Source: a virus
DNA: 44,248 nt
Direction: 5' to 3' (one strand)
IMG/VR virus record: IMGVR_UViG_3300045988_057449
Location: 1 to 44,248 of that record
Shown here: one piece after another, positions 11,664 through 44,248 of the stretch
Numbering within the stretch: the stretch's first letter is position 1
Layout: each line of letters starts with the position of its first letter
Made by a program: the position numbers and the translations under genes
Notes under the pieces: generated by a model
The model's database searches: none
Seen by the model: the letters and a program-made list of their open reading frames with translations, nothing else
What the model was told of the DNA's origin: nothing

Positions 11664-11700
11664 TTTTTCCCTCCTCTCGATTTGAGTTACTGTAAACAAG

Positions 11701-11729: not shown

Positions 11730-11823
11730 AAGTCCGTCACGATTACATAGCATTAGAGACTCTGAGTGTAAGATTATACTCAGGGAGGTTTCTTGCACCT
11801 TTTTTGAACAACCTGTTGTTTAT

Positions 11824-11852
11824 ATTATATCTAAGCCAACTTAGATTGTCAA
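11824..11852 (-). promoter_or_regulatory. Consensus promoter directed toward the Cro-like/early operon
   Basis: The minus strand reads TTGACA (11852-11847), 17-nt spacer, TATAAT (11829-11824). The spacer contains the palindrome TCTAAG-ccaa-CTTAGA (11830-11845). Confidence 0.6.
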
Positions 11853-11921
11853 GAGGTTTTTCAAAGATTTCTAAGAAAATTTTGTAAAAAATCTAAGTAT
11901 ACTTATTTCGGAGGTATCATC

Positions 11922-12323: not shown

Positions 12324-12386
12324 TTGCGGGAAGATTATCCCGTATGAAGCGGTATGTATTTATAGGCGATTAAAGGAGTTAGAATA

Positions 12387-13943: not shown

Positions 13944-13969
13944 TTGGCTCTACCCGGCGTTTTGTTTTT
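13935..13969 (+). terminator. Hairpin plus T-run between the convergent integrase and holin genes
   Basis: gtagag-tgattgg-ctctac followed by cgttttgttttt. Confidence 0.5.
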
Positions 13970-13983
13970 AGGAGGACTTTATG

Positions 13984-14205
13984 TTACTCAGTCTCGTCCG
14001 TAGTCTCTTTGACTTCGGGGAGACCCGCAACCGAGGTAAGAATGGAGAGCAAACCCGCCAATACGGATGCCGAGCCGACAACTGCCCAATTAACTTCGGT
14101 CAAAAGAGCGGTCGTACCGATAGTAGCGATAGCCGTCTGCGCCATAGTTTTCAGCGCACGGACACCCGCCGCTTTGAGCCATTTCGTGAATTTTTCCTTA
14201 GTCAT
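13984..14205 (-). CDS. Holin (phi LC3/LL-H-like)
   Basis: MTKEKFTKWLKAAGVRALKTMAQTAIATIG...VVGSASVLAGLLSILTSVAG has two hydrophobic segments and an acidic tail. GGAG ribosome-binding site before ATG 14205. Directly downstream of the endolysin. Confidence 0.65.
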   Translation of the reverse strand: MTKEKFTKWLKAAGVRALKTMAQTAIATIGTTALLTEVNWAVVGSASVLAGLLSILTSVAGLPEVKETTDETE

Positions 14206-14224
14206 AATGATTCTCCTTTCAAAT

Positions 14225-15241: not shown

Positions 15242-15254
15242 AATCTTTTCCTCC

Positions 15255-15536
15255 TTATGTAATGACTTTGAATTTTTTAACTTCTTCATAGACTTTATCT
15301 ATGAAGGAATTACCTTTGAGTTTTTTGTACGCTTCGTAGAGATATACGAAGTTTTCGTACTCATACTGCCTAATTTCCCCTGAGTCTTGATGCCGATAGT
15401 AAATACGCAACATTTCGCTGCGCAACAGGCATTTTGTACCGTTCATAACTTTGCTGATACTCACGATACATCCAACAAGCACTCCGAGGAGGGCGATAAT
15501 TTCGCTTGCGAGGGCAATGACCTCCGAAGCATTCAT
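15255..15536 (-). CDS. Small membrane protein, possible second holin/holin-like
   Basis: N-terminal TM segment VIALASEIIALLGVLVGCIVSI. Sits immediately upstream of the endolysin. Confidence 0.35.
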   Translation of the reverse strand: MNASEVIALASEIIALLGVLVGCIVSISKVMNGTKCLLRSEMLRIYYRHQDSGEIRQYEYENFVYLYEAYKKLKGNSFIDKVYEEVKKFKVIT

Positions 15537-16012: not shown

Positions 16013-17125
16013 TTACCTCCATAATTCTTGATAGTATTTGTACATTCGGTTTACGAGATTATAGGTATCTCCCTGTTCGGCGTGAGCTTTCCAACTCTTG
16101 AAACACTCATCAACCTGTTCTCTTGTCAGAAGCCCCGCTTTTGCCCGTTCTACCAATTTACGGAGTTTTCTCCGTTCGTGCGAGACCTTTTCCGGGAGGA
16201 CTTTCATTACTACTTTGCCGGTCGCAGTCAACCGAAAACTGAAACCTAAGAAATGGATAGGTTGCGTTATGGGAAATAACTGTGTCTTTTTCGGACTTAG
16301 TTTCAGTCCCAATGCCGTTACCCGTTCTTCTATCAGGGCTTTGCACTTTCGCAAGTAGTCTTTATTTTCGTGAACGAGGATAAAATCATCATTGTAACGA
16401 ATATAATGTTTAATGTGAAGTTGCTCCTTAATATAGTGGTCGAGGTCATCAAGCACCGCCAACTCTACAAGTTGTGTGACCTGTGAGCCAAGCCCCATTC
16501 CTATTTCGGGATTTTCACCCTGATTGAAACTTTCGATTATTCTCACCACTTCGGAAATTGCCCACTCGTCCGCTACACGCTTTCTAACGGCGGCAATGGC
16601 TACTTCGTGGGGAGTGCTACCGAAGAAGTTTGATAAATCACATTTTAGGACATAACCCTCAACACCATGCTTTCGGTAGTAGCGTTGTAAGTGGGCTTTG
16701 AGCCTGTCCCGTGCGAATTTAGTACCTTTACCTTTTTGGCAAGCGCAATTATCGTAAATAAACGACCTTGTGATTTCTTCGGTGAGGTAGTTATCGCAAA
16801 GGCTTCTCTGAAACACTCTATCCTTTATTCGAGTGCTTACTATATCCCTTTCCTTTGGCTCGTAGACTTTGAACATTGTATATTTGCTTAATTCGTATGT
16901 ACCATTCATAAGTTGTTCTTTTAGCGCAAGGCAGTTCACTAAGCCATTTTTCACATATCCTGCAACGCTGTCTTTCCAACCGACATTCCGCTTACATACC
17001 CATAGTGCAGCATACAAGTTTCCAAAGTCACAAACCGATTCTTTTACGCTTGATTTGTTTAACATAATTAAAATTAGTTGCCGTGTATAGCGATACTTGC
17101 TATTGGAAGCAAACCGCATCGGCAC
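16013..17125 (-). CDS. DGR reverse transcriptase
   Basis: RT motifs including GLGSQVTQ ((I/L)GxxxSQ-type) and YIRYNDDFILV (YxDD). GTG start with AAGGTGA upstream. Sits immediately 3' of the TR. Confidence 0.9.
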   Translation of the reverse strand: MPMRFASNSKYRYTRQLILIMLNKSSVKESVCDFGNLYAALWVCKRNVGWKDSVAGYVKNGLVNCLALKEQLMNGTYELSKYTMFKVYEPKERDIVSTRIKDRVFQRSLCDNYLTEEITRSFIYDNCACQKGKGTKFARDRLKAHLQRYYRKHGVEGYVLKCDLSNFFGSTPHEVAIAAVRKRVADEWAISEVVRIIESFNQGENPEIGMGLGSQVTQLVELAVLDDLDHYIKEQLHIKHYIRYNDDFILVHENKDYLRKCKALIEERVTALGLKLSPKKTQLFPITQPIHFLGFSFRLTATGKVVMKVLPEKVSHERRKLRKLVERAKAGLLTREQVDECFKSWKAHAEQGDTYNLVNRMYKYYQELWR

Positions 17126-31958: not shown

Positions 31959-32144
31959 CTACCCGATTATAGAGGTCTTGTTTCTAACTCGCCGTTCAAT
32001 TTCTACAATGACGAGTTTATTATTCTCTTTTTTTATCTCGGCGGCGTTTCCTTTCCGCACGATTTTCATTATGAGGTCGATAACCTCCGGGGTGAACATT
32101 TTCTCGTATTCCACATTTACACCCTTTCTCTCTGACAACGACAA
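31959..32144 (-). CDS. Small hypothetical protein
   Basis: ORF only. The true start is uncertain (alternative ATG at 32099). Confidence 0.3.
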   Translation of the reverse strand: MSLSERKGVNVEYEKMFTPEVIDLIMKIVRKGNAAEIKKENNKLVIVEIERRVRNKTSIIG

Positions 32145-32707
32145 TTAGGATGTGGGTCAGGGGGTACAAGGTGGATGCTATAAATACGACCGTCCCGTTT
32201 TTTACAAATCGAGCAAGTCTTTTCGTCCCTTTCTGCAACCCACTTTACAAGTTGTACACCGTCATCGTTGTACGCTTGCATTGTGGCTTCATCAGTAACC
32301 CTGTCCGCATATATCCTGCACATGAAAGACATTGAGCGCAAAGCAGCATCAATTTCTTGTGCTTTGGTATCGCTCGAAATAATGGCTTCTATCAGTCGAG
32401 CGCACTTCCTGTCCATCTCGTGGGCAAACACATATTTGCTCACGGGGTCGTACCCCGTTAGAAGATAGTCGATCCATTCTTCATCAAGGTCACGATAGGA
32501 CTTCCGTTGTGCGGTATGAGAATAAACTTGATTAGCCAAAAGGAGAAACGACTTTTTAACAATTCCGTACAATTCACGATACAAAGTGTTGACCTCGTTC
32601 AGAACATTCAATTCATCAAAAGAGACCAAACTTTTCAGTCGGGAATATCTTTCAATCAACTGCTTGTCGATATAGGCAATTATCTTGTCCGTGTATTCAT
32701 AGGTCAT
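32117..32707 (-). CDS. Head morphogenesis/minor capsid protein (SPP1 gp7 / Mu F-like)
   Basis: C-terminal signature EKTCSICKKRDGRIYSI...PPDPHPNCRC. Follows the portal gene. Confidence 0.8.
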   Translation of the reverse strand: MTYEYTDKIIAYIDKQLIERYSRLKSLVSFDELNVLNEVNTLYRELYGIVKKSFLLLANQVYSHTAQRKSYRDLDEEWIDYLLTGYDPVSKYVFAHEMDRKCARLIEAIISSDTKAQEIDAALRSMSFMCRIYADRVTDEATMQAYNDDGVQLVKWVAERDEKTCSICKKRDGRIYSIHLVPPDPHPNCRCQRERV

Positions 32708-34176
32708 TGCTTATCGTCCTCCGAATCAGGAGTATTGTCGCTTTCTCCATTTGCATCTTTCTTCGACTTCTGCGTTTCCGTCTGAGCAAACATTTCAAGT
32801 TCTTTCTGCGCTTCTTCCTTACGCTCATCTGAGTATTCTTTACTCTGAGTATATGCAAGGTCAGGATCGACAAACAAGCCGCAGTGTTCAAACGCCAATC
32901 GAGGATGAATTTTATCATTAGCGAGAAGTGTAGTGAGTACCTGCGCTTTCGCCTGAATATTCTCATAATTCCGGCGAGTGAAGCGAATCTCAATAGCGGA
33001 AAGTTTCAGCTCCATATCCCGCAAGGTATTCGCAATGCGAATAGCCAAACGGAGAAATCTCTTTTCCGACATTTTGAACATCAACTCGGTATCTTTCGCC
33101 CGTGCTTCTGCATCCGACCAACCGTCACGCATAATTACCGCAGACCCGGTATCACTTGTGGAACTGCCGCCATTCCTGTTCGGCATACCGCAGATTACGA
33201 GGATAGTTTGATACATATAATCCACGAGGGTTTGCGTTTGCGTTTGATTAAGCTCCTGAGTAACATAATAAGCATCGCCCTCCAACGGAACTTTCAGACC
33301 GCCATTTTCTCTCAATGCCTTATATTCTTCGGAATCAATATCCACGCCCTTCAAAATTAAGAGGGACTGAATAAACTGTTCAATTCCGTCAAGTCTGTTA
33401 GAGGTGACATTGTTGAGCGCATCAAGCAGAGGAAGGACAATTTCAAAAGCACCTAACCGAGCAGAATTTGCGGGATATTCGATAATCGGAATATCACCGT
33501 AAATATGCCCCTCATTTTTGGTAATCGACTTCGGGGTGTAATTGCTTTGGTTAATCGTTCCAGGCTGCAATACCTCAAAGTAATTCTTGTCGGTGTAAAT
33601 AGAGAAAATAACAGAGCCGTCCTCGTGGGTTACATACTTAACACCCATCATAGGCTTATTTCCGAGACCGCTGTGATACACCACAAATGCGTTGCGAGGA
33701 TCGAGCGTATATATCTCGAAAGGAGACTCGTCCTCTTCGCCCTTTGGGTCGGGTAAAATCATTCGATAGGCAGTACCGCAAATGGTAAACCAGTCGGCGA
33801 GTTCTTTGTCCTTTGCCGCCTTATCTTCTGCAAACACAAAATCGTTAAGGAGATTGATTGCATCGGTTGCACCGCTGTCATCGGTCAAACGGCTGACATA
33901 CTGCACAGGCTCTCCCATAAGATAACCGACCTTAAAGGAGACAATCTCGTTTGCTCTGTTCTCGACAATCCGATTACAAATTTCGGGACGAAATTCTTTT
34001 GAACGATCAAGAACAGGTTGCTTGCCTTTATAATACTCATACAGGTACTGAATGTCGGCACGGTTACGAGCATGAACAGTCATTGCCCTGTCGAGAACTT
34101 TCAAAACATTCTCCGGCGTAATCTCATCAAAATCGGTATAGATTACTTCCCGACCGTATAGTGTACGCTTATCCAT
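32704..34176 (-). CDS. Portal protein (SPP1 gp6-like)
   Basis: 490 aa. Sits after terL. NRADIQYLYEYYKGKQPVL...RIVENRANEIVSFKVGY. Confidence 0.85.
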   Translation of the reverse strand: MDKRTLYGREVIYTDFDEITPENVLKVLDRAMTVHARNRADIQYLYEYYKGKQPVLDRSKEFRPEICNRIVENRANEIVSFKVGYLMGEPVQYVSRLTDDSGATDAINLLNDFVFAEDKAAKDKELADWFTICGTAYRMILPDPKGEEDESPFEIYTLDPRNAFVVYHSGLGNKPMMGVKYVTHEDGSVIFSIYTDKNYFEVLQPGTINQSNYTPKSITKNEGHIYGDIPIIEYPANSARLGAFEIVLPLLDALNNVTSNRLDGIEQFIQSLLILKGVDIDSEEYKALRENGGLKVPLEGDAYYVTQELNQTQTQTLVDYMYQTILVICGMPNRNGGSSTSDTGSAVIMRDGWSDAEARAKDTELMFKMSEKRFLRLAIRIANTLRDMELKLSAIEIRFTRRNYENIQAKAQVLTTLLANDKIHPRLAFEHCGLFVDPDLAYTQSKEYSDERKEEAQKELEMFAQTETQKSKKDANGESDNTPDSEDDKQ

Positions 34177-34213
34177 TTCAGCACCTCCTTATAGACCCAC
34201 TTATTCATATCTT

Positions 34214-34242
34214 ATTATACACAATTCTCTAATGCTTGTCAA
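34214..34242 (-). promoter_or_regulatory. Consensus sigma-70-type promoter between terL and the portal gene
   Basis: The minus strand reads TTGACA (34242-34237), 17-nt spacer, TATAAT (34219-34214). Confidence 0.5.
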
Positions 34243-34281
34243 GCGATTTTGACGAATAATAGCATTGGAGAGTAAAAGTTT

Positions 34282-35940
34282 TCAAAAAATTCGCTTAAAT
34301 ACTTCCACCCGTCCCGAAGTATTACGCACCATAGCGATTGCCATAGCAAGACTATCCGGGGCATCATCGTTTTTATTTTTTGCGAACATTTTGTAGGAAA
34401 ACACATTTTGCATAAACAGACTGTAAGCCTTACTGCGCTTACCCGATTCACGGAAAATCATCATCTCCCGAATATCGGGAGCTTTATCGAAAATCCGTTG
34501 GAACTTCGCTTTATCAGAGGGAGCGGCTTTGGTAGTCAAGTTTATCCTGCGACCTTGTTTTTTAAGTTCCTCCTGTACACCTTCTTTATATGCTTCGGTC
34601 GATTTGTTTGCTTCTATTTGCATAGCGGCAACATTGTTCCTGATAACTGCCTGTGCAAGGAGCGGTTGTGTTACCTTTTTGTCCCCACTGTCGTATACAA
34701 CATCGTGAACATAAATATCGTCCCCATACTGAAAACAAACGGGTGCGGCAACAAAGTCACCGCCGCCGAATGCAGGATCAACCGCCATAAAAATCCTGTC
34801 CGGCTCTCCGTCCGGTAGCACTCCGTTATAATAGCGGAACTCTCCCGGAGAGAACAATGCGCCGTCACGCTCTATCGGCTCTCCCATATATTGTGCGTTC
34901 CAAGAAGCCATATCATTGTTTCTCTCGAATGAAGCACGGCGCATACGGTAATAGTCCGTAGAAAAGCCCACTGCGTAATCATAGTCGAATTGGCTTTCAT
35001 CGTTTTCGTCAAGAGCGGACAGATTGATTATTTCATAACGGCGATTCTTAAATCTTTCGTCATTCTCCAAAAGTTCCATCCTCAGTCCGGCAGGATCAAT
35101 CATAGACCACCGAGTACCACACCAAAGGATTTTGGCTTTCTCTTTCGCACGGGGCAGGAGATTATTATCAACCTTGCTCCACGCCGAAACAAGTCTGTCC
35201 TTGTTGAGAGCTTCTTCAATACCTCCGATAAGGTCATCAGAGATTTCAAATCCGTTACAGTCACAAGCACCGTTCAATGTTCCGTATAGCGACCGGCAAG
35301 TTAGAGAGGGATAGCGTTTCTTTCGGTCAATGTTAATAGTTTCGTCCTGCGAATTGGTTTGAACGAGTTTAGCATTTGGGAACACATCGTGCCAAAGGTA
35401 TGTCATAGGGTCGTTGATAATTTCCAAGACACCGTTATAGAACGCTTTGGTGATAGTATCGGAGTAAGCGGAATACAGGTTAGATGCTTCACTCTTTTTA
35501 CCAATGAGCCAAGTAACAAAGAACATAAGAATTGTGGTCTTACCGACACGGGGCGGCATAGAAATAAACAGCTCGTCCAACTCATCGTCCGTGAGTTTTT
35601 GTAAGGCATCCACCACTCTTTTTAACACCTTACGGCGGGGCTGATAAAATCGCTCACTCGGCTTACGGTTAATTTCGATATAGAGCAGATAGGAATCAAA
35701 GAAATGTGGGGCATCGAACAGAAGCGTTTTCTTGTAAAGCTCAAAAAATCCCTCTACATTCTTTCGATTCTTTATCGCTGCCGTAATCTTCTTACGCAAT
35801 TCTTCGTTGGTAGAGTGGGAGAGGGTAAAGTCCTCCTGCTCGATATTACGGCAGAGGGCAAACAAATCCTCATAGGCGGTGATGTCCGTAGGTGTCTTTT
35901 TTATTTTCTGAAAAATTTTTGAAATTAGGTTTTTATTCAT
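34282..35940 (-). CDS. terL: Terminase large subunit
   Basis: Walker A MPPRVGKTT, nuclease-half acidic motifs, 552 aa, followed by the portal gene. Confidence 0.85.
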   Translation of the reverse strand: MNKNLISKIFQKIKKTPTDITAYEDLFALCRNIEQEDFTLSHSTNEELRKKITAAIKNRKNVEGFFELYKKTLLFDAPHFFDSYLLYIEINRKPSERFYQPRRKVLKRVVDALQKLTDDELDELFISMPPRVGKTTILMFFVTWLIGKKSEASNLYSAYSDTITKAFYNGVLEIINDPMTYLWHDVFPNAKLVQTNSQDETINIDRKKRYPSLTCRSLYGTLNGACDCNGFEISDDLIGGIEEALNKDRLVSAWSKVDNNLLPRAKEKAKILWCGTRWSMIDPAGLRMELLENDERFKNRRYEIINLSALDENDESQFDYDYAVGFSTDYYRMRRASFERNNDMASWNAQYMGEPIERDGALFSPGEFRYYNGVLPDGEPDRIFMAVDPAFGGGDFVAAPVCFQYGDDIYVHDVVYDSGDKKVTQPLLAQAVIRNNVAAMQIEANKSTEAYKEGVQEELKKQGRRINLTTKAAPSDKAKFQRIFDKAPDIREMMIFRESGKRSKAYSLFMQNVFSYKMFAKNKNDDAPDSLAMAIAMVRNTSGRVEVFKRIF

Positions 35941-35951
35941 TGCGTACCTCC

Positions 35952-35986
35952 GAAAAGAAAAGGACTACCCCTAACGAGATAGTCCC
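35952..35986 (-). terminator. Intrinsic terminator-like hairpin, copy 2 of the conserved element
   Basis: The minus strand reads GGACTA-12 nt-TAGTCC followed by TTTTCTTTTC. It lies between the small TM gene and terL. Confidence 0.5.
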
Positions 35987-36023
35987 TGTTGACCGTTTTC
36001 GCACACCCTGTTGTATGCGCCAA

Positions 36024-36215
36024 TTAAAGCCCACCGCCGTTGAGCCAATCCCAATACTCGACCGCTCTCTTATGGCGTTTCGCTTTTTTCTTCTTTACTT
36101 CCTTTTTGCTCTCATAACAAGCACTTGCAACAAGTGCAGCGGGAGCGCATAGTACCCACAGCCATGCTCCTTTCTTCGTAAACATCGGATTCTCTTCGGC
36201 TTTCTTTTTCTTCAT
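36024..36215 (-). CDS. Small Lys-rich membrane protein
   Basis: TM segment AWLWVLCAPAALVASACY flanked by KKKK tracts. ATGA overlap with the upstream gene. Confidence 0.4.
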   Translation of the reverse strand: MKKKKAEENPMFTKKGAWLWVLCAPAALVASACYESKKEVKKKKAKRHKRAVEYWDWLNGGGL

Positions 36216-36937
36216 TTTCTACCCTTCTTTCCGCATTGGTTTACCCACCATTGTATTCGCCCAGTCATTTGCTCGTCATCAATATTCGGAATAACGAGCC
36301 TTTCGCATCTCACGGTATCACTTTTATAAATAATCTCGTTAATTGGTGGAGCGACATTTGCGATTCCCGTGATCCTACAAATCTTTGAGCTCGTTGTTCC
36401 ATTAAGACACCCATACGCAGGAAATATCTCGTCAATACCTCCATACGGCTTACAGTATGCCGCAAGCAAGAACAAATGAACTCTCGCCATTCGACCTTTC
36501 GATAAAATCGAAAAGATTAAAGATTCAATCTGTTTTCCATATCGGAGTGATAATACATCGTACCCGTCTACAATTACCCACATTGAGGGAAAAATTGTCT
36601 TGCTTTTCTGATATTCGGCTAATCTTCCGTCTATTATATCAACGATATTTCTCATTGTTAATACGGCTTTTTCAAGGTCGGACACATAAGACATCGTATG
36701 CGGCATTGCCGCATAATCGACCAAATACAAACCCGCCAAATCAAACAGAACAAACCTAATATCCACAGGAGACTTATACAGGGAAGTATAGACAAACCCA
36801 TTTCTGATGGAATCCCGGTCTTTTGTTTGGCTGCCTGAGATAAAGACATGACATTGTTCAAGCATATCAAGATACAGTCGGTTAGCATTCCCGCCCGGGG
36901 TAAACCATTGTTTCGGTGATTGCTTTTTACCAAACAT
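36212..36937 (-). CDS. Degenerate FtsK/SpoIIIE-like P-loop paralogue (motifs lost)
   Basis: Aligns along its length with the 38947-39699 product (KQWFTPGGNANRLYLDMLEQCH versus KEWNTPGGTAAAICLDMLKQSH; RIQWWVNQ versus RVQWWTDQ). Walker A is GSQTKDRDS, Walker B is VIVDGYD, and ATQRP has become AAYCKP. Confidence 0.65.
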   Translation of the reverse strand: MFGKKQSPKQWFTPGGNANRLYLDMLEQCHVFISGSQTKDRDSIRNGFVYTSLYKSPVDIRFVLFDLAGLYLVDYAAMPHTMSYVSDLEKAVLTMRNIVDIIDGRLAEYQKSKTIFPSMWVIVDGYDVLSLRYGKQIESLIFSILSKGRMARVHLFLLAAYCKPYGGIDEIFPAYGCLNGTTSSKICRITGIANVAPPINEIIYKSDTVRCERLVIPNIDDEQMTGRIQWWVNQCGKKGRK

Positions 36938-36939
36938 AT

Positions 36940-37707
36940 TCAATCCACCTCTAATATAGGCTCGTGAACACCTTTAACCCAGTTCATTTCCTTACCGTAC
37001 TTGTACATTCCTTCGTACAGGGGACGATTGTTGACAATACTACGAACACTCGTGTTTTGAAACTTCGTCCCTTTGCGGGTGCGATACCCAAGGTCGTTAA
37101 GTTCATCGGCAATAGTGAGCATCGGAGTATGCTCGTCAATCCTCTTGAACACATACTCAACAATCGGGCGTTCCGCATCATTGATAATCAGTCTGCCATT
37201 CTCAACCTTATAACCATAAGGGCAACGACCGCCCGAATAGCCACCGCACTGTGCTTTGATACTCCTGCCCTTACTCGTTCTGATGGCAATATTCTTCCGC
37301 TCCTGCTCTGCAACGAATTGAAGAAGCGCACGATAGATATTTGCAAACTCGCTACCTTCTGCAAATTCCTCTTTGGTACTAAGAAGCCGAATGTTCTTCT
37401 TTTCGAGAGTGTATAGGTAGTAAAAGTACAATTTCGTATCACGGGCAAGACGGTCGTTCTTGAAAACAATCACCGCTTCAAACGGGGGGTTGGTAACATT
37501 GTCCCCATAGAGGATTTCGTTCAGAGCGGGGCGGTCATCCTTTGCGCCGCTGATTTCGTCAATCTTCCAATCGACAATGTTATATCCGTTGGTATTAGCA
37601 TAGAGAAGAATTGCTTGCTTCTGAACATCAATACCGAACTTATCGTCTTTTGCCTGTTGTTCTGTTGATACACGAACATAGCCAATAGCGTTTTTGAATG
37701 TCTGCAT
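36940..37707 (-). CDS. Small serine recombinase (resolvase catalytic domain plus recombinase domain, no zinc ribbon or coiled coil)
   Basis: AIGYVRVSTEQQ, KNDRLARD, VAEQERKNIAIRTSKG, GGRCPYGYK. ATG 37707 has GGAGG upstream. Confidence 0.85.
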   Translation of the reverse strand: MQTFKNAIGYVRVSTEQQAKDDKFGIDVQKQAILLYANTNGYNIVDWKIDEISGAKDDRPALNEILYGDNVTNPPFEAVIVFKNDRLARDTKLYFYYLYTLEKKNIRLLSTKEEFAEGSEFANIYRALLQFVAEQERKNIAIRTSKGRSIKAQCGGYSGGRCPYGYKVENGRLIINDAERPIVEYVFKRIDEHTPMLTIADELNDLGYRTRKGTKFQNTSVRSIVNNRPLYEGMYKYGKEMNWVKGVHEPILEVD

Positions 37708-37735
37708 AGGTGAGACCTCCTTGCTTGTTGCATTT

Positions 37736-37764
37736 AGTATAGCATAGGTAAATGCAAATGTCAA
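37736..37764 (-). promoter_or_regulatory. Promoter of the recombinase operon, overlapped by an 8-bp inverted repeat
   Basis: The minus strand reads TTGACA, 17-nt spacer, TATACT. TGCATTTA (37729-37736) and TAAATGCA (37749-37756) bracket the -10 box. Confidence 0.55.
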
Positions 37765-37954
37765 GGGGTTTATATAAAAAATTCCTTTTTATTTTTCGAG
37801 TGTGTTTACGGCACTCACCCCCGCCCGCAATGCCCGCCGCAATCCCCCACGGGTACACCGTAGCCCCGGCAGGATCAGAGCCGGACGGAGCGCACGAAAA
37901 CGCACAGCAGCCGGACGAGTTGCAAAAAATCTTGAAAAAGTTTTGAAAAAACTC

Positions 37955-37983
37955 TTGACAAGTAAATACAAGCGTGATATAAT
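37955..37983 (+). promoter_or_regulatory. Consensus promoter of the plus-strand cassette
   Basis: TTGACA, 17-nt spacer, TATAAT. Two TTGAAAAA repeats lie upstream (37932 and 37943). Confidence 0.6.
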
Positions 37984-38118
37984 GATACCATAATAGAAAG
38001 AGGGCGCACCGCACAGCCGACCAAAGCAGAAGCGGAACGCCCACACAAACCAACCCACGCCGGGCGGCTGCTCCTCTATTATAGCATATACCCGGCACAA
38101 TTACAAGGAGGATTTACA

Positions 38119-38511
38119 ATGTTAAAAACAAACAGCAAGAAAGCCGCCGAAAATATCCGGGCTTACATTATGGACGGTTTCACGCCTGAGGGCTACACGG
38201 ACAACCCGCCGCAGGAATGGCACGAAATAGCCGCATTTATTCTCGACACTTTCAGAAGCGAAAAATACCACTTGCCGCAAGATTTCCGTTATTACAGAAA
38301 TAACGAGTCCGCCGCCTTCGCTGACTGGTGCGCAGGGCTTGCCGGAGTGCTTAGCACTTGCTATTATTACAACCGTTCAGCGGTTGACGATCTCGGCGCA
38401 ATCCTTGAAGAGACGGACGAAGAAAAAGCACGATACACCGAAGAGCAAGCCGAAAAAATGCTTACAACCCTGATTTATAGAGAGTTAAAGAAAGGAGCGG
38501 CGCAGAAATGA
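38119..38511 (+). CDS. Hypothetical protein (130 aa), first gene of the cassette
   Basis: AAGGAGG ribosome-binding site. No motif I can name. Confidence 0.5.
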   Translation: MLKTNSKKAAENIRAYIMDGFTPEGYTDNPPQEWHEIAAFILDTFRSEKYHLPQDFRYYRNNESAAFADWCAGLAGVLSTCYYYNRSAVDDLGAILEETDEEKARYTEEQAEKMLTTLIYRELKKGAAQK

Positions 38512-38735
38512 GAAAATACAAACTTTTAGAGCTGAAAAACCTTGTGCGCTGCGGAATGGCGCACGATCTGACTAACGCAACCGCCGCCGAAGTTATGGAA
38601 CAATGGGAACACGGCGAAAAAGTCGGGTATAGTTTGGGCGTGTACGGCATTAACGGCGGGCTAATTCAGAACACCGAAACGGGCGAATATTACGCCATTA
38701 CCGCCCGCAATTCAAATTTATTTCGTATATTCTAG
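38508..38735 (+). CDS. Hypothetical protein (75 aa)
   Basis: ATGA overlap with the upstream gene. No recognisable motif. Confidence 0.45.
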   Translation: MRKYKLLELKNLVRCGMAHDLTNATAAEVMEQWEHGEKVGYSLGVYGINGGLIQNTETGEYYAITARNSNLFRIF

Positions 38736-38782
38736 CACAGAGCCGCCCGCCGTGGCGGCTCAACTTTTAGGAGGTGCAACAA

Positions 38783-38959
38783 ATGACATTATACTATACA
38801 TATGACGAGCAAGAAGCGCAGGAATTAAAACAGCATTTCGAAAAACAGGGATATAACGTGCTAATAATCCCAATAGCGGACGAATTCCGAAAGTTTGGAG
38901 ACCCTCGCCCCGTAAAAGTAAAATACTTCATCCGTAGGGAGGGGAAATGCAAACAATGA
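38783..38959 (+). CDS. Hypothetical protein (58 aa)
   Basis: ATG 38783 has GGAGG 8 nt upstream (the ORF track starts at an upstream GTG). Overlaps the FtsK-like start. Confidence 0.4.
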   Translation: MTLYYTYDEQEAQELKQHFEKQGYNVLIIPIADEFRKFGDPRPVKVKYFIRREGKCKQ

Positions 38960-39699
38960 AAGAATGGAACACGCCCGGCGGGACTGCGGCGGCGATCTGT
39001 CTCGATATGCTCAAACAGTCGCATATACTCATAGCAGGAAGCACGGGAAGCGGCAAAAGCGTACTAATAAACAGCCTAATATATACCGCTCTTTACAAGC
39101 CGCCGACCGTCTGCGGGTTTATCCTGATAGACCCGAAGCGGGTGGAATTAAACCAATATAGACCGCTCCCGCATTGCTTGCGGTACGCATCAGAGCCGGA
39201 CGAGATCGCCGCCACGCTTGCCGCCGCCGTTGCCCTTATGGATGACCGATACAAGGCATTACAGGCGCAAGGGCTGAAAGAATGGGACGGCGGGCATATT
39301 TATATTATTATAGACGAGTTCGCCGACCTTATGACAACGCAGAAGCGGGACACGCTGCCGCAGTTGCAACGCCTTGCACAACTCGGACGGGCGGCGCATC
39401 TCCACTTGATAGCAGCCACACAGAGACCCACGAAAGATATTATAAACGGACAAATTAAAGTAAATATGGATTCCCGGCTTGCTCTGCGCTGCCCCACGGC
39501 GCAGGACTCCCGAAACATCATAAACACCAAAGGAGCGGAAACGCTGCCCCGCTTCGGCTTCGGGTACTACCTCACGCCGGAGACAATGCGCCCCGAATTA
39601 GTCAAGATACCATACACAGACCCCGCCGACCTTGCCGCCCGTGTGCAATGGTGGACAGATCAGAAAGACAAACCCCGCCGCCATTGGTGGAGCAGATAA
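38947..39699 (+). CDS. FtsK/SpoIIIE-family DNA-translocase-like ATPase (motor domain only, motifs intact)
   Basis: Walker A AGSTGSGKS, Walker B YIIIDEFADL, IAATQRPT. 250 aa. Confidence 0.8.
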   Translation: MQTMKEWNTPGGTAAAICLDMLKQSHILIAGSTGSGKSVLINSLIYTALYKPPTVCGFILIDPKRVELNQYRPLPHCLRYASEPDEIAATLAAAVALMDDRYKALQAQGLKEWDGGHIYIIIDEFADLMTTQKRDTLPQLQRLAQLGRAAHLHLIAATQRPTKDIINGQIKVNMDSRLALRCPTAQDSRNIINTKGAETLPRFGFGYYLTPETMRPELVKIPYTDPADLAARVQWWTDQKDKPRRHWWSR

Positions 39700-39705
39700 G
39701 ACACA

Positions 39706-39736
39706 AGCCCCGACACGCTGCCGGGGCTTTTCTTTT
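39706..39736 (+). terminator. Rho-independent terminator of the plus-strand cassette
   Basis: a-gccccg-acacgctgc-cggggc-t followed by ttttctttt. Confidence 0.7.
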
Positions 39737-39824
39737 ACCCTATCGCAGTAAAGCCCCCTAAAACGCTTTACAAGGCGTTTTTACTCTTACCCATATAAAA
39801 CACACTACCAACACCACAAACGCC

Positions 39825-39854
39825 GCACAGAGAGCCACAGAGAGACGCAGAGAG
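39825..39854. repeat. Three tandem 10-bp repeats, N-CACAGAGAG type
   Basis: gcacagagag / ccacagagag / acgcagagag, read directly. Noncoding. Confidence 0.8.
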
Positions 39855-39988
39855 GGCAGCCACGAGAACAAGCAAAACCCCGCAACGAGCAGCACAGCCG
39901 CCCGGCGGGGTTTCGTTGTATCTATTTCGGCGTGGGGTTTCAGGCGAGGACGGCGGCAGGGCTTGCCGCTTTCCGTCCTCCCGCAAGT

Positions 39989-40018
39989 GCCTTTGTGCGC
40001 CTTTGTGCGCCTTTGTGC
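39989..40018. repeat. Three exact tandem copies of GCCTTTGTGC abutting the terS stop codon
   Basis: Read directly. Two more exact copies are at 40864-40873 and 40885-40894. Two CCTTTGTGT copies are at 40067-40084. Confidence 0.9.
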
Positions 40019-40022
40019 GTTT

Positions 40023-40565
40023 CTATTCGTCCTCGACAACGCTTTCAATATACCGCTCTTCAAGCTCCTTTGTGTCCTTTGTGTCTCCGAGCGGGCTATT
40101 GGGAGTGAGTACAACTTCCTGTTTGTCGGCATAGCCGAAATTATTCTTCATGAGGAAGATGCCGGACACAGGGTTGATCTTGCCATTCTGCATATAATCG
40201 ACCATTTGAAGATCGAGTAATTTCATCGCTTTTTTTAGAGTGTTGGCTACCTCAGGATTTTTACCTTTTCGCCCTGCTCGTATTTCCCACAGATATGTTC
40301 TATCAATATCCATAGCAAGAGCCAATCCCGCAACAGAGGGTTTCATATCGTCATCAGCACAAATCGAGAAGTAATCTCTAATTCTTTGTGTCACTTCTTC
40401 AACACTCTTCAAATCACATTTCGGTAAATCAGCCAAGCGAAGCGAGTGCAAGATGTACTTCCGATTGTCTCCCGGCTCAGTATGAACACTTTGTGCTTCG
40501 GTCAAATCAGGGCGTTTCCGCTTTGTGATTTGCTTGCCGACTTCTCTCGCTGTCTTATTATCCAT
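40023..40565 (-). CDS. terS: Terminase small subunit (gp3/GP3_package-like)
   Basis: KPSVAGLALAMDIDRTYLWEI... and GIFLMKNNFGYADKQE signature. AAAGGAG ribosome-binding site. Confidence 0.65.
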   Translation of the reverse strand: MDNKTAREVGKQITKRKRPDLTEAQSVHTEPGDNRKYILHSLRLADLPKCDLKSVEEVTQRIRDYFSICADDDMKPSVAGLALAMDIDRTYLWEIRAGRKGKNPEVANTLKKAMKLLDLQMVDYMQNGKINPVSGIFLMKNNFGYADKQEVVLTPNSPLGDTKDTKELEERYIESVVEDE

Positions 40566-40694
40566 TAAAATTTCTCCTTTCGATTAAGTGAAAAAGTGAG
40601 CTATTTTAGTTTTTTGCAGTATTTTAGTTCTTATATGCGTGTATATAGAGAGAAAATAGTACATTTTATTAAAATAACTCACTTTTTAATACGA

Positions 40695-42191
40695 TTACTC
40701 ACTTTTCAATCTCAAATTCCTGTAAAACGGGTAGCCATCTCTCTTAACGCAACCATCAGACCATTCGGGGTGCATATTAAGACCAGCATAAAACTTCTTT
40801 GCGCTCAAAACAAAGTACCCGTTACTCCGGCACCATATTTTATAGTTATCGTAAAGAGCCTTTGCCTTTGTGCCGCCGTCCTCTGCCTTTGTGCATTTTT
40901 CTTCAAGGAATTGTAATACAATGTCGTTGTCTTTCTCGTACTGCTTAATTACTCTTTTCATATTTTCACACATTTTCAGTCCGAAACGCTTATAGCGAAA
41001 GTAGCCAATGAGCAACCAAGTAAAAATGCCTACCATTGCTTCGGGCGTACGGAAAGTTTCTTTTAGACTTTCGTCTCGTTCTTCCTCCGAAAAATGCCGA
41101 TTGAACTCAATCACCCTGACACGATCAGAAGCAAACAGGGACTTATCCTGTACAGACGGGAGGTCATTACAGGAAAGCCATAAAGTAAACTGGGGAAGAA
41201 AAGTCATAGGAGCTTCGTGAAGATTACGAGCTTTAACTTCTTCGCCGCCTGTCAACTGCTTTATAGTTTCCTCGTCCAACTTTCCATATTGATTGCTCTC
41301 TGCCATTGTAACAAAGCGTTTACCTTTGAGGGAAGCCAACATAGGACTCGCTGCTTCTGCATTTTTGGCACGATCTCCTTTGCAGATAATTGATACTGGA
41401 CTAACAGTAGCATAATCGCCGAGCAAATGATGAATTGTGCCGAGCAAGGTTGATTTTCCGTTACGGGTAGTTTTGCCGTGCAGAATAAACATACACTCTT
41501 CTTTGGAAGTACCGAGCATAGAATAACCCAACGCTCTTTGTAGGTAGTCTGCTTTGTCTTTGTCGTTGTTCGTTACCTCGTCAATAAAATGCTCCCAACG
41601 CTTATAACGAACATCCTCTTGCATTGTGTACTCAAAGTTTGTTTGCATAGTAAGGAAGTCCCGCCAATCGTGTTCACGGAAGCACATATTTTCAAGGTCA
41701 TAAGTACCGTTAAGACAGTTGATAAGATTAGGGTTTGCATCAAATTCCGCTGCTTTTATGGGGTATACGCTTGCGGCATCTTTCATAAGACGGTCACGGA
41801 AACGCCGATCACCCATTTTATTGATAAACTTAAAATAGGATTTGCGCTTTTCTTCGTCTGTGATTTCTCCGCAATATAAGACCATGAGCCGGGCGAACTC
41901 TTTGATTTTCTCCGCAACGAGCAGAGAGCCAACATCTTTCTTCCATACGCCGCTGTCATAGGTATACCAACTTTTTGCTTCGGGGCAATACCGGGTATCG
42001 TTCTTATAACATTCCGAAAAGAGCTCTGCCATACCGCTTTCGTCCCAAGAGTAGCCCGTATTGTCTGATTGGCAGGACTCCGGCTGAACACGCTTTATGT
42101 AGAACATTTTGTCGGAAAGCTCTTCGGACATAATATACCGTCCGTTGCTTAGTTGGAATAACTCTTTGTCATCTCCGATTACTTCGCTCAT
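40695..42191 (-). CDS. D5/P4-family primase-helicase (SF3 NTPase)
   Basis: D5_N-like N-terminus (NCLNGTYDL...). Walker A HGKTTRNGKST. P4-type C-terminal domain. Confidence 0.8.
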   Translation of the reverse strand: MSEVIGDDKELFQLSNGRYIMSEELSDKMFYIKRVQPESCQSDNTGYSWDESGMAELFSECYKNDTRYCPEAKSWYTYDSGVWKKDVGSLLVAEKIKEFARLMVLYCGEITDEEKRKSYFKFINKMGDRRFRDRLMKDAASVYPIKAAEFDANPNLINCLNGTYDLENMCFREHDWRDFLTMQTNFEYTMQEDVRYKRWEHFIDEVTNNDKDKADYLQRALGYSMLGTSKEECMFILHGKTTRNGKSTLLGTIHHLLGDYATVSPVSIICKGDRAKNAEAASPMLASLKGKRFVTMAESNQYGKLDEETIKQLTGGEEVKARNLHEAPMTFLPQFTLWLSCNDLPSVQDKSLFASDRVRVIEFNRHFSEEERDESLKETFRTPEAMVGIFTWLLIGYFRYKRFGLKMCENMKRVIKQYEKDNDIVLQFLEEKCTKAEDGGTKAKALYDNYKIWCRSNGYFVLSAKKFYAGLNMHPEWSDGCVKRDGYPFYRNLRLKSE

Positions 42192-42826
42192 TTGTTATCA
42201 CCTCTAATCTCTTTAATATAAGGCAGCCCCCTCAAAATCTCACAAAACTCCCGCCACTCGTCAAGTTTGTGGTTTTCCCTGTAATCAAGCATATTCATAA
42301 CATTTTCGTAGGTCATGCTAACCGTGCGCCGCTGATTATAACTTGACGGCAGGAGCTGAATCAACTGCCACCAATAATCTTTGTTTTTGGATTGCAAGTA
42401 ATCTTCTCTCCAAGAGTTTAAGTCGGTAACAATATCAGCCAACAAACCGTGAGGGTCAAGTAGGTGTTCGTGGCTGAAATCGTCAAGCGTAAACTCTTTT
42501 GCGGTGATTTTGTGCATAGTGGAGCAGGAGTTAGCGGTCGTGCCGACCTTGTGTGTATCAAACTCTTTCCACCAATAGAGAGGAGCGGTAATGTCCATAA
42601 CTGCGAAAATCTGTCTGAGGTATTTTCTGTGCGGCTGACCGCCTACATAAAGACGGTGCATGAGATCGAGGTCGTTTTCGCCGATTTTCACATCAGGAAC
42701 AAACTCCCCCGAATATGCTTCGTACCCAAAGGAGCTATCTGACCGCTCCCAACTGTTTAACGGGTTTCTCATGCCACGGATAGCGTGTTCAAAGCCCCAA
42801 GTGTCAACATATTCAACCTTAATCAT
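42188..42826 (-). CDS. ThyX-like (FAD-dependent thymidylate synthase fold) protein with substituted catalytic motif
   Basis: PHRKYLRQIFAVMDITAPLYWWKEFDTHKVGTTANSCSTMHKI parallels the ThyX H...E......SR......RHR....(S)QRY block, but reads THK and STMH. I trimmed the start to ATG 42826 (GGAG upstream, ATGATTAA overlap). Confidence 0.35.
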   Translation of the reverse strand: MIKVEYVDTWGFEHAIRGMRNPLNSWERSDSSFGYEAYSGEFVPDVKIGENDLDLMHRLYVGGQPHRKYLRQIFAVMDITAPLYWWKEFDTHKVGTTANSCSTMHKITAKEFTLDDFSHEHLLDPHGLLADIVTDLNSWREDYLQSKNKDYWWQLIQLLPSSYNQRRTVSMTYENVMNMLDYRENHKLDEWREFCEILRGLPYIKEIRGDNK

Positions 42827-43112
42827 TGGCTTCTTTCTCCTTTTCGTTGTATTTGAGTTGGAAGTAACGCATCCAACAATCGGCGGCGGTTGCTTTGCCA
42901 CAAAACTTTTCACACCATTCGTCTTTTTCTTCGGTGTCGTGAAGTTCTTCCTCAAATGGAGACATATTGCACGGCTCCTCGAAACACTCTGCCAACTGTT
43001 CACAGATAAACTCAGGTGTGACGAGGTTTTCGTTGGACTTTGAGCAAATCGAGCATACCATAGTTCCTTCAGGAATGATCTCTCCGCAGCACACACATCT
43101 GTTTTCAGCCAT
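42819..43112 (-). CDS. Small zinc-ribbon, acidic protein
   Basis: MAENRCVCCGEIIPEGTMVCSIC.... GAGGAAGGTG precedes ATG 43112. Confidence 0.4.
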   Translation of the reverse strand: MAENRCVCCGEIIPEGTMVCSICSKSNENLVTPEFICEQLAECFEEPCNMSPFEEELHDTEEKDEWCEKFCGKATAADCWMRYFQLKYNEKEKEAND

Positions 43113-43113
43113 T

Positions 43114-43290
43114 TCAAGCACCTTCCTCTTTCAAAATTTCCTTTACGCAGTCGAAACAGTAACAACCCTCACGCCCCTCAATTTCGTAGAGGAAACACAT
43201 CCAATTCAAACCCCAACCTTTGGTTTGCTTGCATCGTCTACACTCGCCGTGTCCTTCACCCTTATAACGGGTTACTTTTATTTGATTCAT
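43114..43290 (-). CDS. Small zinc-ribbon-like protein (58 aa)
   Basis: Translated by hand as MNQIKVTRYKGEGHGECRRCKQTKGWGLNWMCFLYEIEGREGCYCFDCVKEILKEEGA. ATGA overlap with the HNH gene stop. Confidence 0.4.
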   Translation of the reverse strand: MNQIKVTRYKGEGHGECRRCKQTKGWGLNWMCFLYEIEGREGCYCFDCVKEILKEEGA

Positions 43291-43826
43291 ATACTGTCAC
43301 TCCTATTGCCATAGAATTGGTTTTCGTTGTGTCGGAGATCAGGAAAGTATTCGAGCAGTTTTGCAGTAAGAATAGCCGTTTTTGTTAGTTCAGGGTTTGT
43401 GAACAACCACTTTCTCCAACACAAAGAGGAATATATCGCTTTTGATACAAACTCGATATTGTCCTCCGAAAAGTCCGCTAAGTCACCGTTGAGGTGAACA
43501 ATCATCTCGTCTTTACTTCGACAATATTTCTTTCGGAAATAGGCGTTTGCCGCAACATAGCCGTTTTCCGTCTTGACCCTCGCACCGTTATTCTTCCCCC
43601 TGATTACCGTTCCGATGGGGTTTCTATGGTGTATCTTTTCTTTGCGGATGTTGTGCGTACCCTTCTTCAAGCCCAACTTAGACAACCGTTTCAGTAAGTT
43701 ACCGTAGGTCGTAGTGTGGTGGGGAAATTCGGCGTTGAATATGTCCGTAAGATCGTATATGGTATGGCACTTGTCAAGGTTTTCTCGGAGAAAGTTGTCT
43801 TCGGCGGGGGTGAAATATATTCTCAT
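43287..43826 (-). CDS. HNH-like (HNH_3-type) endonuclease, degenerate
   Basis: EMIVHLNGDLADFSEDNIEFVSKA resembles the H-N-H core of homing-type HNH_3 proteins. Basic central region. Confidence 0.4.
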   Translation of the reverse strand: MRIYFTPAEDNFLRENLDKCHTIYDLTDIFNAEFPHHTTTYGNLLKRLSKLGLKKGTHNIRKEKIHHRNPIGTVIRGKNNGARVKTENGYVAANAYFRKKYCRSKDEMIVHLNGDLADFSEDNIEFVSKAIYSSLCWRKWLFTNPELTKTAILTAKLLEYFPDLRHNENQFYGNRSDSI

Positions 43827-44020
43827 TCCTTGCCGACCGCCTTGTCGATACGCTTGCCCCTGTTGTTGACAAACTTATCTGTTCTGAGGATAACATCGGC
43901 ATTGTTAATCATCTGTTTGGCGAGACTTGCGATAGCCTTAGCCTTGTCGATGTTTCCTGTACCGTCCTCAATAGAAACGATTGCCTTACCCAAGACATCT
44001 TGTAATTCCAATAAAGTCAT
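43823..44020 (-). CDS. Hypothetical protein (65 aa)
   Basis: GGAGG ribosome-binding site. ATGA overlap with the downstream gene. Confidence 0.4.
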   Translation of the reverse strand: MTLLELQDVLGKAIVSIEDGTGNIDKAKAIASLAKQMINNADVILRTDKFVNNRGKRIDKAVGKE

Positions 44021-44025
44021 CGTTG

Positions 44026-44248
44026 TTACCTCCTATATTTCGTAACTGAGTTTACTATTGTTTGTATTTCCCCGACCGCCAGCGGGGGTTTACAAGCCGC
44101 TTGATTGGCTTTGAGGAGTTCTTTATAAATCTCCTGCTTTTTGTAACCTTGATTGTGTAACTGCCCTGCGAGAGAGGTTAGGCTAAGGTTTCTCATACCT
44201 TGCGGTATGGGCGGGTATGTGGGTTGAATAGAAATTTTACCTTTCTCC
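44026..44248 (-). CDS. Primase-polymerase, 3' part (PriCT-1-like C-terminal domain); same gene as 1-618
   Basis: Reading through the junction gives ...PIPQGMRNLSLTSLAGQLHNQGYKKQEIYKELLKANQAACKPPLAVGEIQTIVNSVTKYRR, ending at the stop at 44026-44028. Confidence 0.7.
   Translation of the reverse strand, partial: EKGKISIQPTYPPIPQGMRNLSLTSLAGQLHNQGYKKQEIYKELLKANQAACKPPLAVGEIQTIVNSVTKYRR
44194..44248. repeat. Second copy of the 55-bp terminal overlap
   Basis: Identical to bases 1-55. Confidence 0.95.

Follow-up and report, generated by a model that had tools for sequence, protein, structure and literature searches.

The interval between terS and terL of an IMG/VR virus genome is probably a lineage-typical locus with exchangeable cargo

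Gene content of the terS-terL interval

The IMG/VR virus record IMGVR_UViG_3300045988_057449 (positions 1 to 44,248; this whole stretch of 44,248 nucleotides is referred to here as the window) contains an interval of 4082 bp between the gene for the small terminase subunit (terS) and the gene for the large subunit (terL). Both terminase genes lie on the minus strand, as do three genes of the interval, which encode a short serine recombinase (SR), a degenerate FtsK-like paralogue and a 63-aa single-pass membrane protein (TM63). Four further open reading frames (ORFs), o130, o75, o61 and an intact FtsK-like ATPase, form a cassette on the plus strand, antisense to the terminase genes. The genes, promoters, terminators and rise in GC content that an earlier note on this DNA had described are all found where it placed them (Table 1). 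Based on comparison with related loci, we consider the interval to be probably an inter-terminase locus that is typical of its lineage, a large group of temperate, siphophage-like Oscillospirales prophages, and that carries regulated and exchangeable cargo, and not an insertion.

Table 1. Features of the terS-terL interval and its borders, in window coordinates
Feature	Position	Strand	Basis and remarks
terL (large terminase)	34282..35940	-	Terminase RNaseH-like Pfam families, phrog_38 at 7e-61; heads the structural operon
terL attenuator	35951..36019	-	Hairpin 1 36019-36000; terminator hairpin 35987-35960; U-tract 35959-35951; ribosome-binding site 35950-35946
TM63, single-pass membrane protein	36024..36215	-	ORF and hydrophobic segment; overlaps the stop codon of the degenerate FtsK-like gene
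Degenerate FtsK-like paralogue	36212..36943	-	Pfam FtsK_SpoIIIE 1e-6; Walker A/B-dead
Short serine recombinase (SR)	36940..37707	-	Real ATG at 37707, 255 aa; Resolvase and Recombinase domains
SR promoter	37736..37764	-	TTGACA-17-TATACT, TG-extended, 11/12
Conserved intergenic block A	37777..37857	.	T-run, small hairpin, C-rich 12-13-bp repeats, ATCCCCCACGGGTAC
Cassette promoter region	37924..37983	+	Three phased A-tracts 37924-37958; hexamers 37955-37983, TTGACA-17-TATAAT, TG-extended, 12/12
Countertranscript unit (predicted)	37986..38106	-	Promoter 38106-38078, TTGTAA-17-TGcTATAAT; RNA from ~38071 to ~37990
Cassette mRNA leader	37998..38121	+	Helix 1 38002-38042; helices 2/3 pair 38059-38070 with 38082-38096
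o130	38119-38511	+	phrog_11100 (unknown function); 1661 database clusters
o75	38508-38735	+	Cargo ORF
o61	38774-38959	+	Cargo ORF
Intact FtsK-like ATPase	38947..39699	+	250 aa; FtsK_SpoIIIE 2e-34; beta (RecA-like) motor domain only
Cassette terminator	39705..39738	+	Hairpin 39705-39729, then TTCTTTT
terS transcript terminator	39874..39913	-	CCCCGC...GCGGGG, then UUUU; overlaps inverted repeat I3
Seven CCTTTGTG boxes around terS	39989..40893	+	Candidate pac/TerS-binding repeats; TRF
terS (P22 gp3-like small terminase)	40023..40565	-	GP3_package at 9e-15, phrog_606; last gene of the primase-terS early/middle operon

The interval in related phages

A terL-based scan of IMG/VR yielded 80 related loci with terL identities of 38-98%; L numbers designate these and further loci discussed below. 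The spacing of terS and terL was scored in the 49 relatives that hold both genes, and gene maps were drawn for 48 loci. The two genes had been described as normally adjacent; in 47 of the 49 relatives they are instead separated by 3.1-7.9 kb (median 4.2 kb), with the same architecture as in the window. The 48 maps share the order terS, antisense gene(s), divergent intergenic region, SR, zero to three sense genes and terL. An SR-family gene pointing in the terL direction is present in 39 of them, and none of the relatives' maps shows an empty site. The adjacency of primase and terS is also kept in the relatives.

Genomic homologues of the intact FtsK-like protein (at least 39% identity) occur in Oscillospirales, e.g., in Acutalibacteraceae, Anaerotruncus and Oscillospiraceae. 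Among the 18 closest of these, 14 adjoin terS, terL or an SR, mostly in the same order even where terL identity is down to 34-36%. In 16 IMG/VR loci, the FtsK-like gene is invariably the last antisense gene and convergent with terS, and the same arrangement is seen in most of the 14 genomic loci with terS, terL or SR. In Clostridium phage Maintenon, the nearest annotated deposited record (terL 44% identical), terS and terL are 2.65 kb apart. A megablast search of INPHARED with positions 32000-44248 returned no near-identical deposited phage.

The serine recombinase and the divergent promoters

The SR is composed of a catalytic domain (PF00239 at 3e-26), in which the YVRVST motif with the nucleophilic serine and the DRLARD motif are conserved, and a Recombinase domain (PF07508 at 1.4e-9, residues 198-271 of the 274-aa ORF). 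It has no PF13408 match for a Zn-ribbon/coiled-coil region and stops at its HEPIL motif (...GVHEPILEVD), and its NCBIfam matches to CcrB/XisF-like recombinases are confined to the N-terminal halves of those families. In full-length large serine recombinases (LSRs), the WVKGVHEPIL motif precedes the Zn-ribbon domain. The best 120 of 1241 SR homologues are 79-99% identical and nearly all 252-274 aa long, the exceptions being two longer calls of 342 and 366 aa, and the long-form members all end at ...WVKGVHEPIL. Moreover, the SR is 95-100% identical in loci whose terL is ~91% and whose terS is 83-89% identical. The SR is a conserved "half-LSR" and not a pseudogene. The phage integrase is a separate, full-length LSR (12387-13943) that has the Zn-ribbon domain.

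In some relatives, the slot is occupied by a true small resolvase-type SR with a helix-turn-helix (HTH), the last 11 codons of which are the same as those of the half-LSR. Both types end in the peptide VKGVHEPILTKEV (window 36940-36975; L003, L005, L008, L012, L021, L058 and L064). This common C-terminal peptide in two unrelated SR types points to a recombination joint ~33 nt inside the 3' end of the SR gene. The SR of the window is itself not of the small resolvase/invertase kind, as its C-terminus is LSR-type, without a small HTH, and no conserved pairs of inverted or direct sites were found. It may act as a resolvase-type enzyme, as an autoregulator at the divergent promoter region, or both.

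The SR promoter and the cassette promoter, both previously pointed out, are the two best sigma-70 matches in 35500-40800, a region with 17 such sites against 7.6±2.9 in shuffled sequences. The hexamers of the cassette promoter are retained in the large majority of 27 aligned relatives. No operator is shared between the interval and the HTH-integrase switch region (11250-11960); the promoters of the gap have only promoter hexamers in common with it.

Just upstream of the SR promoter lies block A, which includes a tandem repeat (37819-37847) and is conserved in 21 loci whatever the SR type. This block of ~80 bp contains CTTTTTATTTTT, the invariant ATCCCCCAC and a small hairpin whose stem changes between lineages, with a register that seems shifted from one lineage to another.

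A structured leader and a predicted countertranscript

The leader, a stretch of ~125 nt that runs from the cassette promoter to the first ATG, is the most conserved DNA of the interval. A search of IMG/VR for an exact 17-mer of this leader gave 88 stretches; once chance matches from GC-rich contigs had been removed, 43 distinct true leaders were left. A covariance model (R1), built on 13 sequences with a hand-drawn structure, was searched over the window and 98 loci. It matches 47 places, including a single copy in the window, at the leader, with 146.8 bits. The leader is always in the slot, at a near-constant distance from the divergent SR in 60 of the 66 loci with enough flank.

The modelled structure consists of helix 1, followed by helices 2/3, which carry an anti-Shine-Dalgarno-like CUCCUC in their apical loop, with the Shine-Dalgarno sequence (SD) itself at 38103-38110. 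Compensatory changes are seen in 16 of 20 pairs and amount to 73 cells, compared to 14±3 in shuffled alignments (reached in 0/500) and 8-18 with slid partners, a count inflated by an alignment that was fitted to the model. Examples include GGGCG/CGCCC changed to GAGCG/CGCUC, GGGCU/AGCCC or GGGUUG/CAACCC. In addition, 32 distinct versions of the 5' half each fold independently into the same two-step hairpin. Single-sequence fold z-scores are weak for the leader and block A (-0.9 to -1.8), and RNAalifold failed to recover helix 1 owing to a misaligned loop in the MAFFT alignment it was given, so that the signal emerged solely with per-sequence folds and the covariance model. No Rfam 15 family reaches its gathering threshold for the leader (best 19.4 vs 91 bits) or for the terL attenuator (14.8 vs 50 bits). 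We regard the leader as a predicted but well-supported structured RNA that has no Rfam family.

The opposite strand of the leader contains a second promoter-like sequence, the -10 element of which reads TATAAT, TACAAT or TACTAT in the 43 distinct leaders. It is preceded by TGn in 42 of the 43, and the -35 element has TTG in 42 of the 43, including eight with a relocated SD. The U-rich tract after helix 1 on the minus strand is kept in every variant (at least 6 of 10 positions). The corresponding minus-strand RNA (38071-37986) folds into a 5' hairpin and a terminator hairpin, the predicted transcript ending in helix 1 and UCUUUCUAUUAU. From these features we infer a cis-antisense RNA of ~80 nt that overlaps the 5' end of the cassette mRNA. 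The cassette would probably be controlled by this countertranscript, by anti-SD pairing of CUCCUC with the SD, or by both, and its expression would rely on host RNA polymerase, in the lysogen or else as soon as the phage DNA enters a cell.

In L042, a Bro-N gene inserted between terL and the portal gene is preceded by a weaker copy of the leader (43.9 bits). In L042/L044 (9640-12330), a 2.7-kb block between these two genes contains small ORFs and Bro-N/antirepressor-like genes; this block is a second accessory slot with the same expression module. In two IMG/VR contigs, L190 (9746-9930) and L229 (4154-4338), the 17-mer CACGCCGGGCGGCTGCT is present twice, inverted and with a spacing of 168 bp, in surroundings that do not resemble the leader.

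A twin hairpin before terL and late transcription

The 85 nt upstream of terL contain a small hairpin and a strong hairpin with a U-tract (fold z = -3.3). The terminator previously assigned to the end of the leftward operon is thus present, as a hairpin (35987-35960, minus strand) and a U-run, but it is a probably regulatory hairpin that occurs clade-wide before terL. In a set of 79 distinct terL-upstream regions (terL identity 34-100%), 52 have a terminator-like hairpin that ends 15-40 nt before the start codon, built from 39 different stems. Most of these also have two copies of a CAACAGGG-like motif, one within the loop of hairpin 1 and the other at the 5' foot of the terminator. Where relatives have extra sense genes (C4, C5), these genes are preceded by the homologous 77 bp.

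No promoter fits between this hairpin and terL. Given the hairpin and the lack of a promoter after it, late expression probably depends on read-through from the promoters of the divergent region, and the twin hairpin is probably an antitermination target that late transcription would have to pass.

This arrangement allows another explanation for the conservation of the leader, in which the minus-strand promoter at 38106-38078 is the late promoter and the ~80-nt terminated RNA a counterpart of lambda PR'/6S. An antiterminator would then permit read-through of helix 1, the SR genes and the terL hairpin. Besides the missing promoter before the terL start codon, this explanation is favored by two clade-wide intrinsic terminators in series on the sense strand and by an initial transcribed region, CACGCCGGGCGGCTG, that is invariant rather than covarying. 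However, the SR has a near-consensus promoter of its own, a plus-strand RNA is favored by the G-U pairs in helices 2/3, no Q-like antiterminator was identified, and the element in L042 has no late operon downstream on the opposite strand. We consider a late promoter as the reason for the conserved leader rather unlikely, yet a serious alternative. The late-promoter and countertranscript functions may also coexist, and it is against the late promoter as sole cause of conservation that the L042 copy argues.

Exchange of cargo between related phages

Alignment of the interval to the related loci by blastn places breakpoints at gene borders (36216/36946, ~38130, 38506/38731 and 38949). Accordingly, o130-o75 (about 38130-38731), o75 alone (38506-38731) and the FtsK-like gene (from 38949) occur as separate modules among the relatives. 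In L001, the nearest relative (terL 98%, FtsK 96% identical), two unrelated genes replace o130-o75-o61, another ORF takes the place of the degenerate FtsK-like gene, and terS is just 55% identical. The recurrence of breakpoints at gene borders, together with the differences in L001, indicates that cargo is replaced gene by gene.

These observations suggest an organization with a conserved hub and exchangeable genes on either side of it. The hub would comprise the ~255-aa SR directed toward terL, the back-to-back sigma-70 promoters, the ~125-nt leader/countertranscript element and the twin hairpin before terL. Antisense cargo would be located between the leader and the convergent terS terminator (in the window, o130-o75-o61 and a soluble FtsK-like beta-domain ATPase), and optional sense cargo between the SR and the terL attenuator (in the window, the pseudo-ATPase paralogue, translationally coupled to TM63). 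Cargo would be swapped by recombination between related phages, for which the hub and the gene borders could serve as joints.

Searches of Pfam, PHROG, NCBIfam and PADLOC gave no match for o75, o61 or TM63, and 20 cargo proteins from relatives returned GP88, Bro-N and otherwise weak hits. In PADLOC, only the FtsK-like domain matches, namely to SspH (the C-terminal ~190 of 1766 positions) and mad8, while six other proteins of the locus have no match. An internal hairpin (38740-38761) lies within the o130-o75-o61 stretch. The strong terminator described at the end of the cassette is borne out by its hairpin (39705-39729) and T-run. The spacer between the convergent cassette and terS terminators contains a low-complexity repeat, 2.9 copies of CACAGAGAGA (39820-39860).

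An intact and a degenerate FtsK-like protein

The intact FtsK-like protein has the motifs GSTGSGKS (Walker A), IIIDEF (Walker B) and ATQRP and matches the beta domain of E. coli FtsK (2IUS). The alignment is limited to residues 160-418 of the 2IUS motor construct, and the protein has no Ftsk_gamma Pfam match, no transmembrane segment and no alpha domain. The only literature link between FtsK and a small terminase that we found comes from the Bacillus phages Sam46 and Sam112 and involves a fusion of the gamma domain (PMC8190038). That gamma-domain fusion is unrelated to the beta-domain protein described here.

The degenerate paralogue was rightly called motif-dead, its Walker A reading GSQTKDRDS and its Walker B DGY, with the ATQRP region lost. 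Its family comprises five database clusters, with identities down to 44%, and both the ORF and the degenerate motifs are kept in all of them. It retains the same N- and C-terminal signatures as the active protein (WxTPGG...LDMLxQ and RxQWWxNQ). In L161-L164, a 44%-identical dead FtsK-like protein is encoded in the order SR-dead FtsK-TM63-terL, opposite an FtsK-o75-o130 cassette. The pseudo-ATPase is, as judged from these sequence comparisons, under selection.

Homologues of TM63 are encoded directly upstream of terL in L001, L009, L014, L059 and L161. A small integrated element, L081 (Clostridiales bacterium UBA7568, DLLG01000004.1, 600-8760), has the same leader, a 283-aa gene and an active FtsK-like gene. 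It also encodes a 579-aa P-loop protein and, divergently, a 475-aa protein in which membrane helices are joined to a Walker-A-degenerate FtsK-like domain and, by eye, to an Mrr-type nuclease tail. No terL, terS or portal match was detected within the 16.7 kb examined around L081. Because this pairing recurs and the dead copy of the window is translationally coupled to TM63, we propose that the proteins may form a membrane-tethered, hetero-oligomeric translocase-like complex.

Origin of the interval

In the earlier note, the interval was taken for a recent foreign moron or hitchhiking element in two parts that had been inserted between formerly adjacent terS and terL genes. The moron description fits in part. 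The rightward unit has its own promoter, genes and terminator, is antisense, deviates in composition and varies in content, but it does not lie between genes that are adjacent in the relatives. The degenerate FtsK-like gene (36216-36946) is the only segment that aligns to none of the 80 IMG/VR loci, a point in favor of the earlier view.

Composition is a further argument for a foreign origin, as is the autonomous promoter and terminator. The rise in GC content is real, with 0.521 in 37800-40020 compared to 0.457±0.016 in same-size windows elsewhere (z = 4.0, maximum 0.489). The excess is mainly due to the intact FtsK-like gene (GC content at third codon positions 0.62) and intergenic DNA, and the left module, at 0.435, is not GC-rich. 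Across 31 distinct loci, the GC content of the FtsK-like gene follows that of terL (r = 0.87) and is the higher of the two in 28, by 3.5 points on average. Because it tracks terL, the excess is partly a property of the FtsK-like gene, which has ameliorated with its phages, and an excess that is general and host-tracking does not mark a foreign insertion. The window, L001 and L161 share an FtsK allele (96% identity) with the largest offset of the loci compared, +9 to +10 points. Probably this GC-rich allele was obtained by exchange with a related phage whose host has a higher GC content, and not acquired in a de novo insertion.

Other evidence speaks against insertion. Distant prophages have the gap as well as 47 of 49 relatives, and no DNA of the region is more conserved than that of the SR, the promoters and the leader. 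FtsK homologues of at least 39% identity almost always occupy the same slot. Neither target-site duplications, direct repeats bracketing the interval, nor element ends were found, and the same holds for empty sites. The earlier note had named presence of the block throughout related phages as the observation that would speak against its reading, and as a slot the block is present in nearly all relatives. A recent foreign insertion that split adjacent genes is therefore largely refuted and, in our estimation, improbable.

Another reading is that the recombinase captures and exchanges cassettes site-specifically at a site in the leader in an integron-like manner, with copies of CGSCGGGCGGCT (38058, 38741 and 39896) as cassette borders. 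The recombinase gene is indeed arranged divergently to a strong promoter, from which a variable array of cassette genes would be transcribed. This 12-mer occurs three times in 44 kb, always at cassette borders (0.2 expected), and its middle copy belongs to 45 bp that are conserved upstream of the FtsK gene in L059 and L065. However, extra copies of CGSCGGGCGGCT are missing from most loci whose variable cassettes comprise several genes, extra copies where present are arms of FtsK-module terminator hairpins, the copies are inverted and not direct, and slots with unrelated small SR types keep the same leader. We judge this mechanism very improbable. The same faint likelihood attaches to the broader idea that the short SR, the divergent promoter and the invariant leader constitute a phage cassette-acquisition platform, a serine-recombinase analogue of the integron among whose circulating cargo would be the active/dead FtsK pair. 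As for the term itself, the recombinase is a serine enzyme and not the tyrosine recombinase IntI, and most loci contain no repeated junction site.

Hardly credible is phase variation, in which the SR would invert the 1.8-kb cassette between inverted repeats at 38048-38070 and 39895-39917. The cassette has an SR gene next to it, and in the window and L001 a 23-nt, 87% inverted repeat brackets the cassette (score 14 vs a shuffle maximum of 12), but no comparable repeat is found in 20 other FtsK-bearing loci, FtsK keeps one orientation relative to terS in the genomic loci with terS as well as in all 16 IMG/VR loci, and the right arm belongs to the terS terminator.

We thus favor the interval as a lineage-typical locus with regulated, exchangeable cargo, against which several points nevertheless weigh. 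The relatives were picked by terL and FtsK similarity and so sample one lineage, and in the distant relatives L070 and L071 terS is near terL. No res-like or att-like recombination site of the SR was found. The cargo proteins o130, o75 and o61 have no Pfam, PADLOC or PDB-sequence match (PDB: o130 and o75), and an AlphaFold2 model of o130 (pLDDT 77) is all-alpha, with a best PDB fold match at E = 0.9. Support for the leader is overstated to the extent that its pair counts derive from the fitted alignment, and the changes that support helices 2/3 are few. The use of the promoters, the countertranscript and read-through of the terL hairpin are what we infer from sequence alone, and a membrane-tethered DNA-translocase-like complex of the active and dead FtsK-like proteins with TM63 is conjecture.

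Other features of the window

The motif CCTTTGTG is present in 12 copies in the window, compared to 1.4 expected, and the seven near terS are all on one strand. Three perfect 10-bp tandem copies (39990-40017) come right after the terS stop codon, and the segment 39990-40199 is conserved in L024, L050 and L053. The array is a candidate for the pac/TerS recognition repeats.

Besides the cassette genes, the HTH and integrase genes (11922-13943) are the sole credible plus-strand genes of the window, in agreement with the earlier note. A 448-aa plus-strand ORF (13916-15262) has no Pfam match and overlaps a minus-strand amidase gene (14225-15289; Amidase_2 at 3e-19). It is probably spurious, which leaves a lysogeny module of the HTH gene (11922-12323) and the integrase gene (12387-13943) only. 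Between the tail/structural and lysis genes, a 370-aa minus-strand ORF (16013-17125) matches RVT_1 at 5e-16; this reverse transcriptase may belong to a diversity-generating retroelement.

Implications

Automated annotation treats a gap between terS and terL as an anomaly or insertion, while in abundant gut Oscillospirales prophages the gap would be a designed-in locus. Such a locus is a natural place to seek lysogenic-conversion, anti-defence or exclusion genes of gut phages, and its conserved flanks could serve to mine cargo diversity from metagenomes. Moreover, the clade-wide twin hairpin before terL makes late-gene control testable in these uncultured phages.

Comparison with known systems

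The locus resembles several known kinds, namely accessory hotspots, cis-antisense control and terminator-controlled late operons. Two RNA elements and two protein families at the locus appear to be undescribed.

The short SR shares with LSRs such as phiC31 Int, CcrB and XisF the YVRVST motif with its serine nucleophile, DRLARD and an LSR-type Recombinase domain, but it stops at the HEPIL motif, without the defining Zn-ribbon/coiled-coil domain. As in Tn3/gamma-delta and beta resolvases, where tnpR adjoins res, the SR gene adjoins a divergent promoter region; unlike them, it has no small HTH and no res-like site was found.

The FtsK-like pair is comparable to FtsK/SpoIIIE and EssC/EccC proteins in that an intact beta-domain RecA-like ATPase is paired with a degenerate paralogue, as in EccC D2/D3. 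The membrane anchor would here come from the separate TM63, whereas in L081 membrane helices are fused to the degenerate FtsK-like domain. In contrast to those systems, there is no alpha or gamma domain and the components are separate small genes on opposite strands. Their interaction and DNA translocation are proposals.

In P22 immI (Pant-ant mRNA and sar) and in plasmid countertranscript RNA (ctRNA) systems, as here, a strong promoter faces a convergent promoter ~80 bp downstream, from which, in this locus, a short RNA ending in a hairpin and antisense to the leader at the 5' end of the accessory mRNA would arise. The resemblance does not extend to sequence or to Rfam membership, as scores of the ctRNA models stay below 19 bits and fall far short of the respective thresholds, and the RNA described here is a predicted one.

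Late control in lambda (PR', 6S RNA, tR' and Q) likewise involves intrinsic terminators before packaging and structural genes, with late expression that needs read-through. Different from lambda, the terminator is located directly before terL with a twin CAACAGGG, no Q homologue or qut site was recognized, and terS is outside the late operon.

Like the morons of lambdoid and HK97-like phages, the cassette has a sigma-70 promoter and a terminator of its own, points the opposite way, deviates in composition and is not present in all relatives. It differs in that the locus is a fixed clade-wide slot with a recombinase, a leader and several genes, and expression in the lysogen is a prediction. Finally, the hotspots of P2-like phages and P4-like satellites are similar in their fixed position between conserved genes, their conserved flanks and the gene-by-gene swapping of cargo. 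No cargo protein at the present locus matches a complete known defence system, and the locus is set apart from those hotspots by its place between the terminase subunits and by a recombinase and RNA elements of its own.

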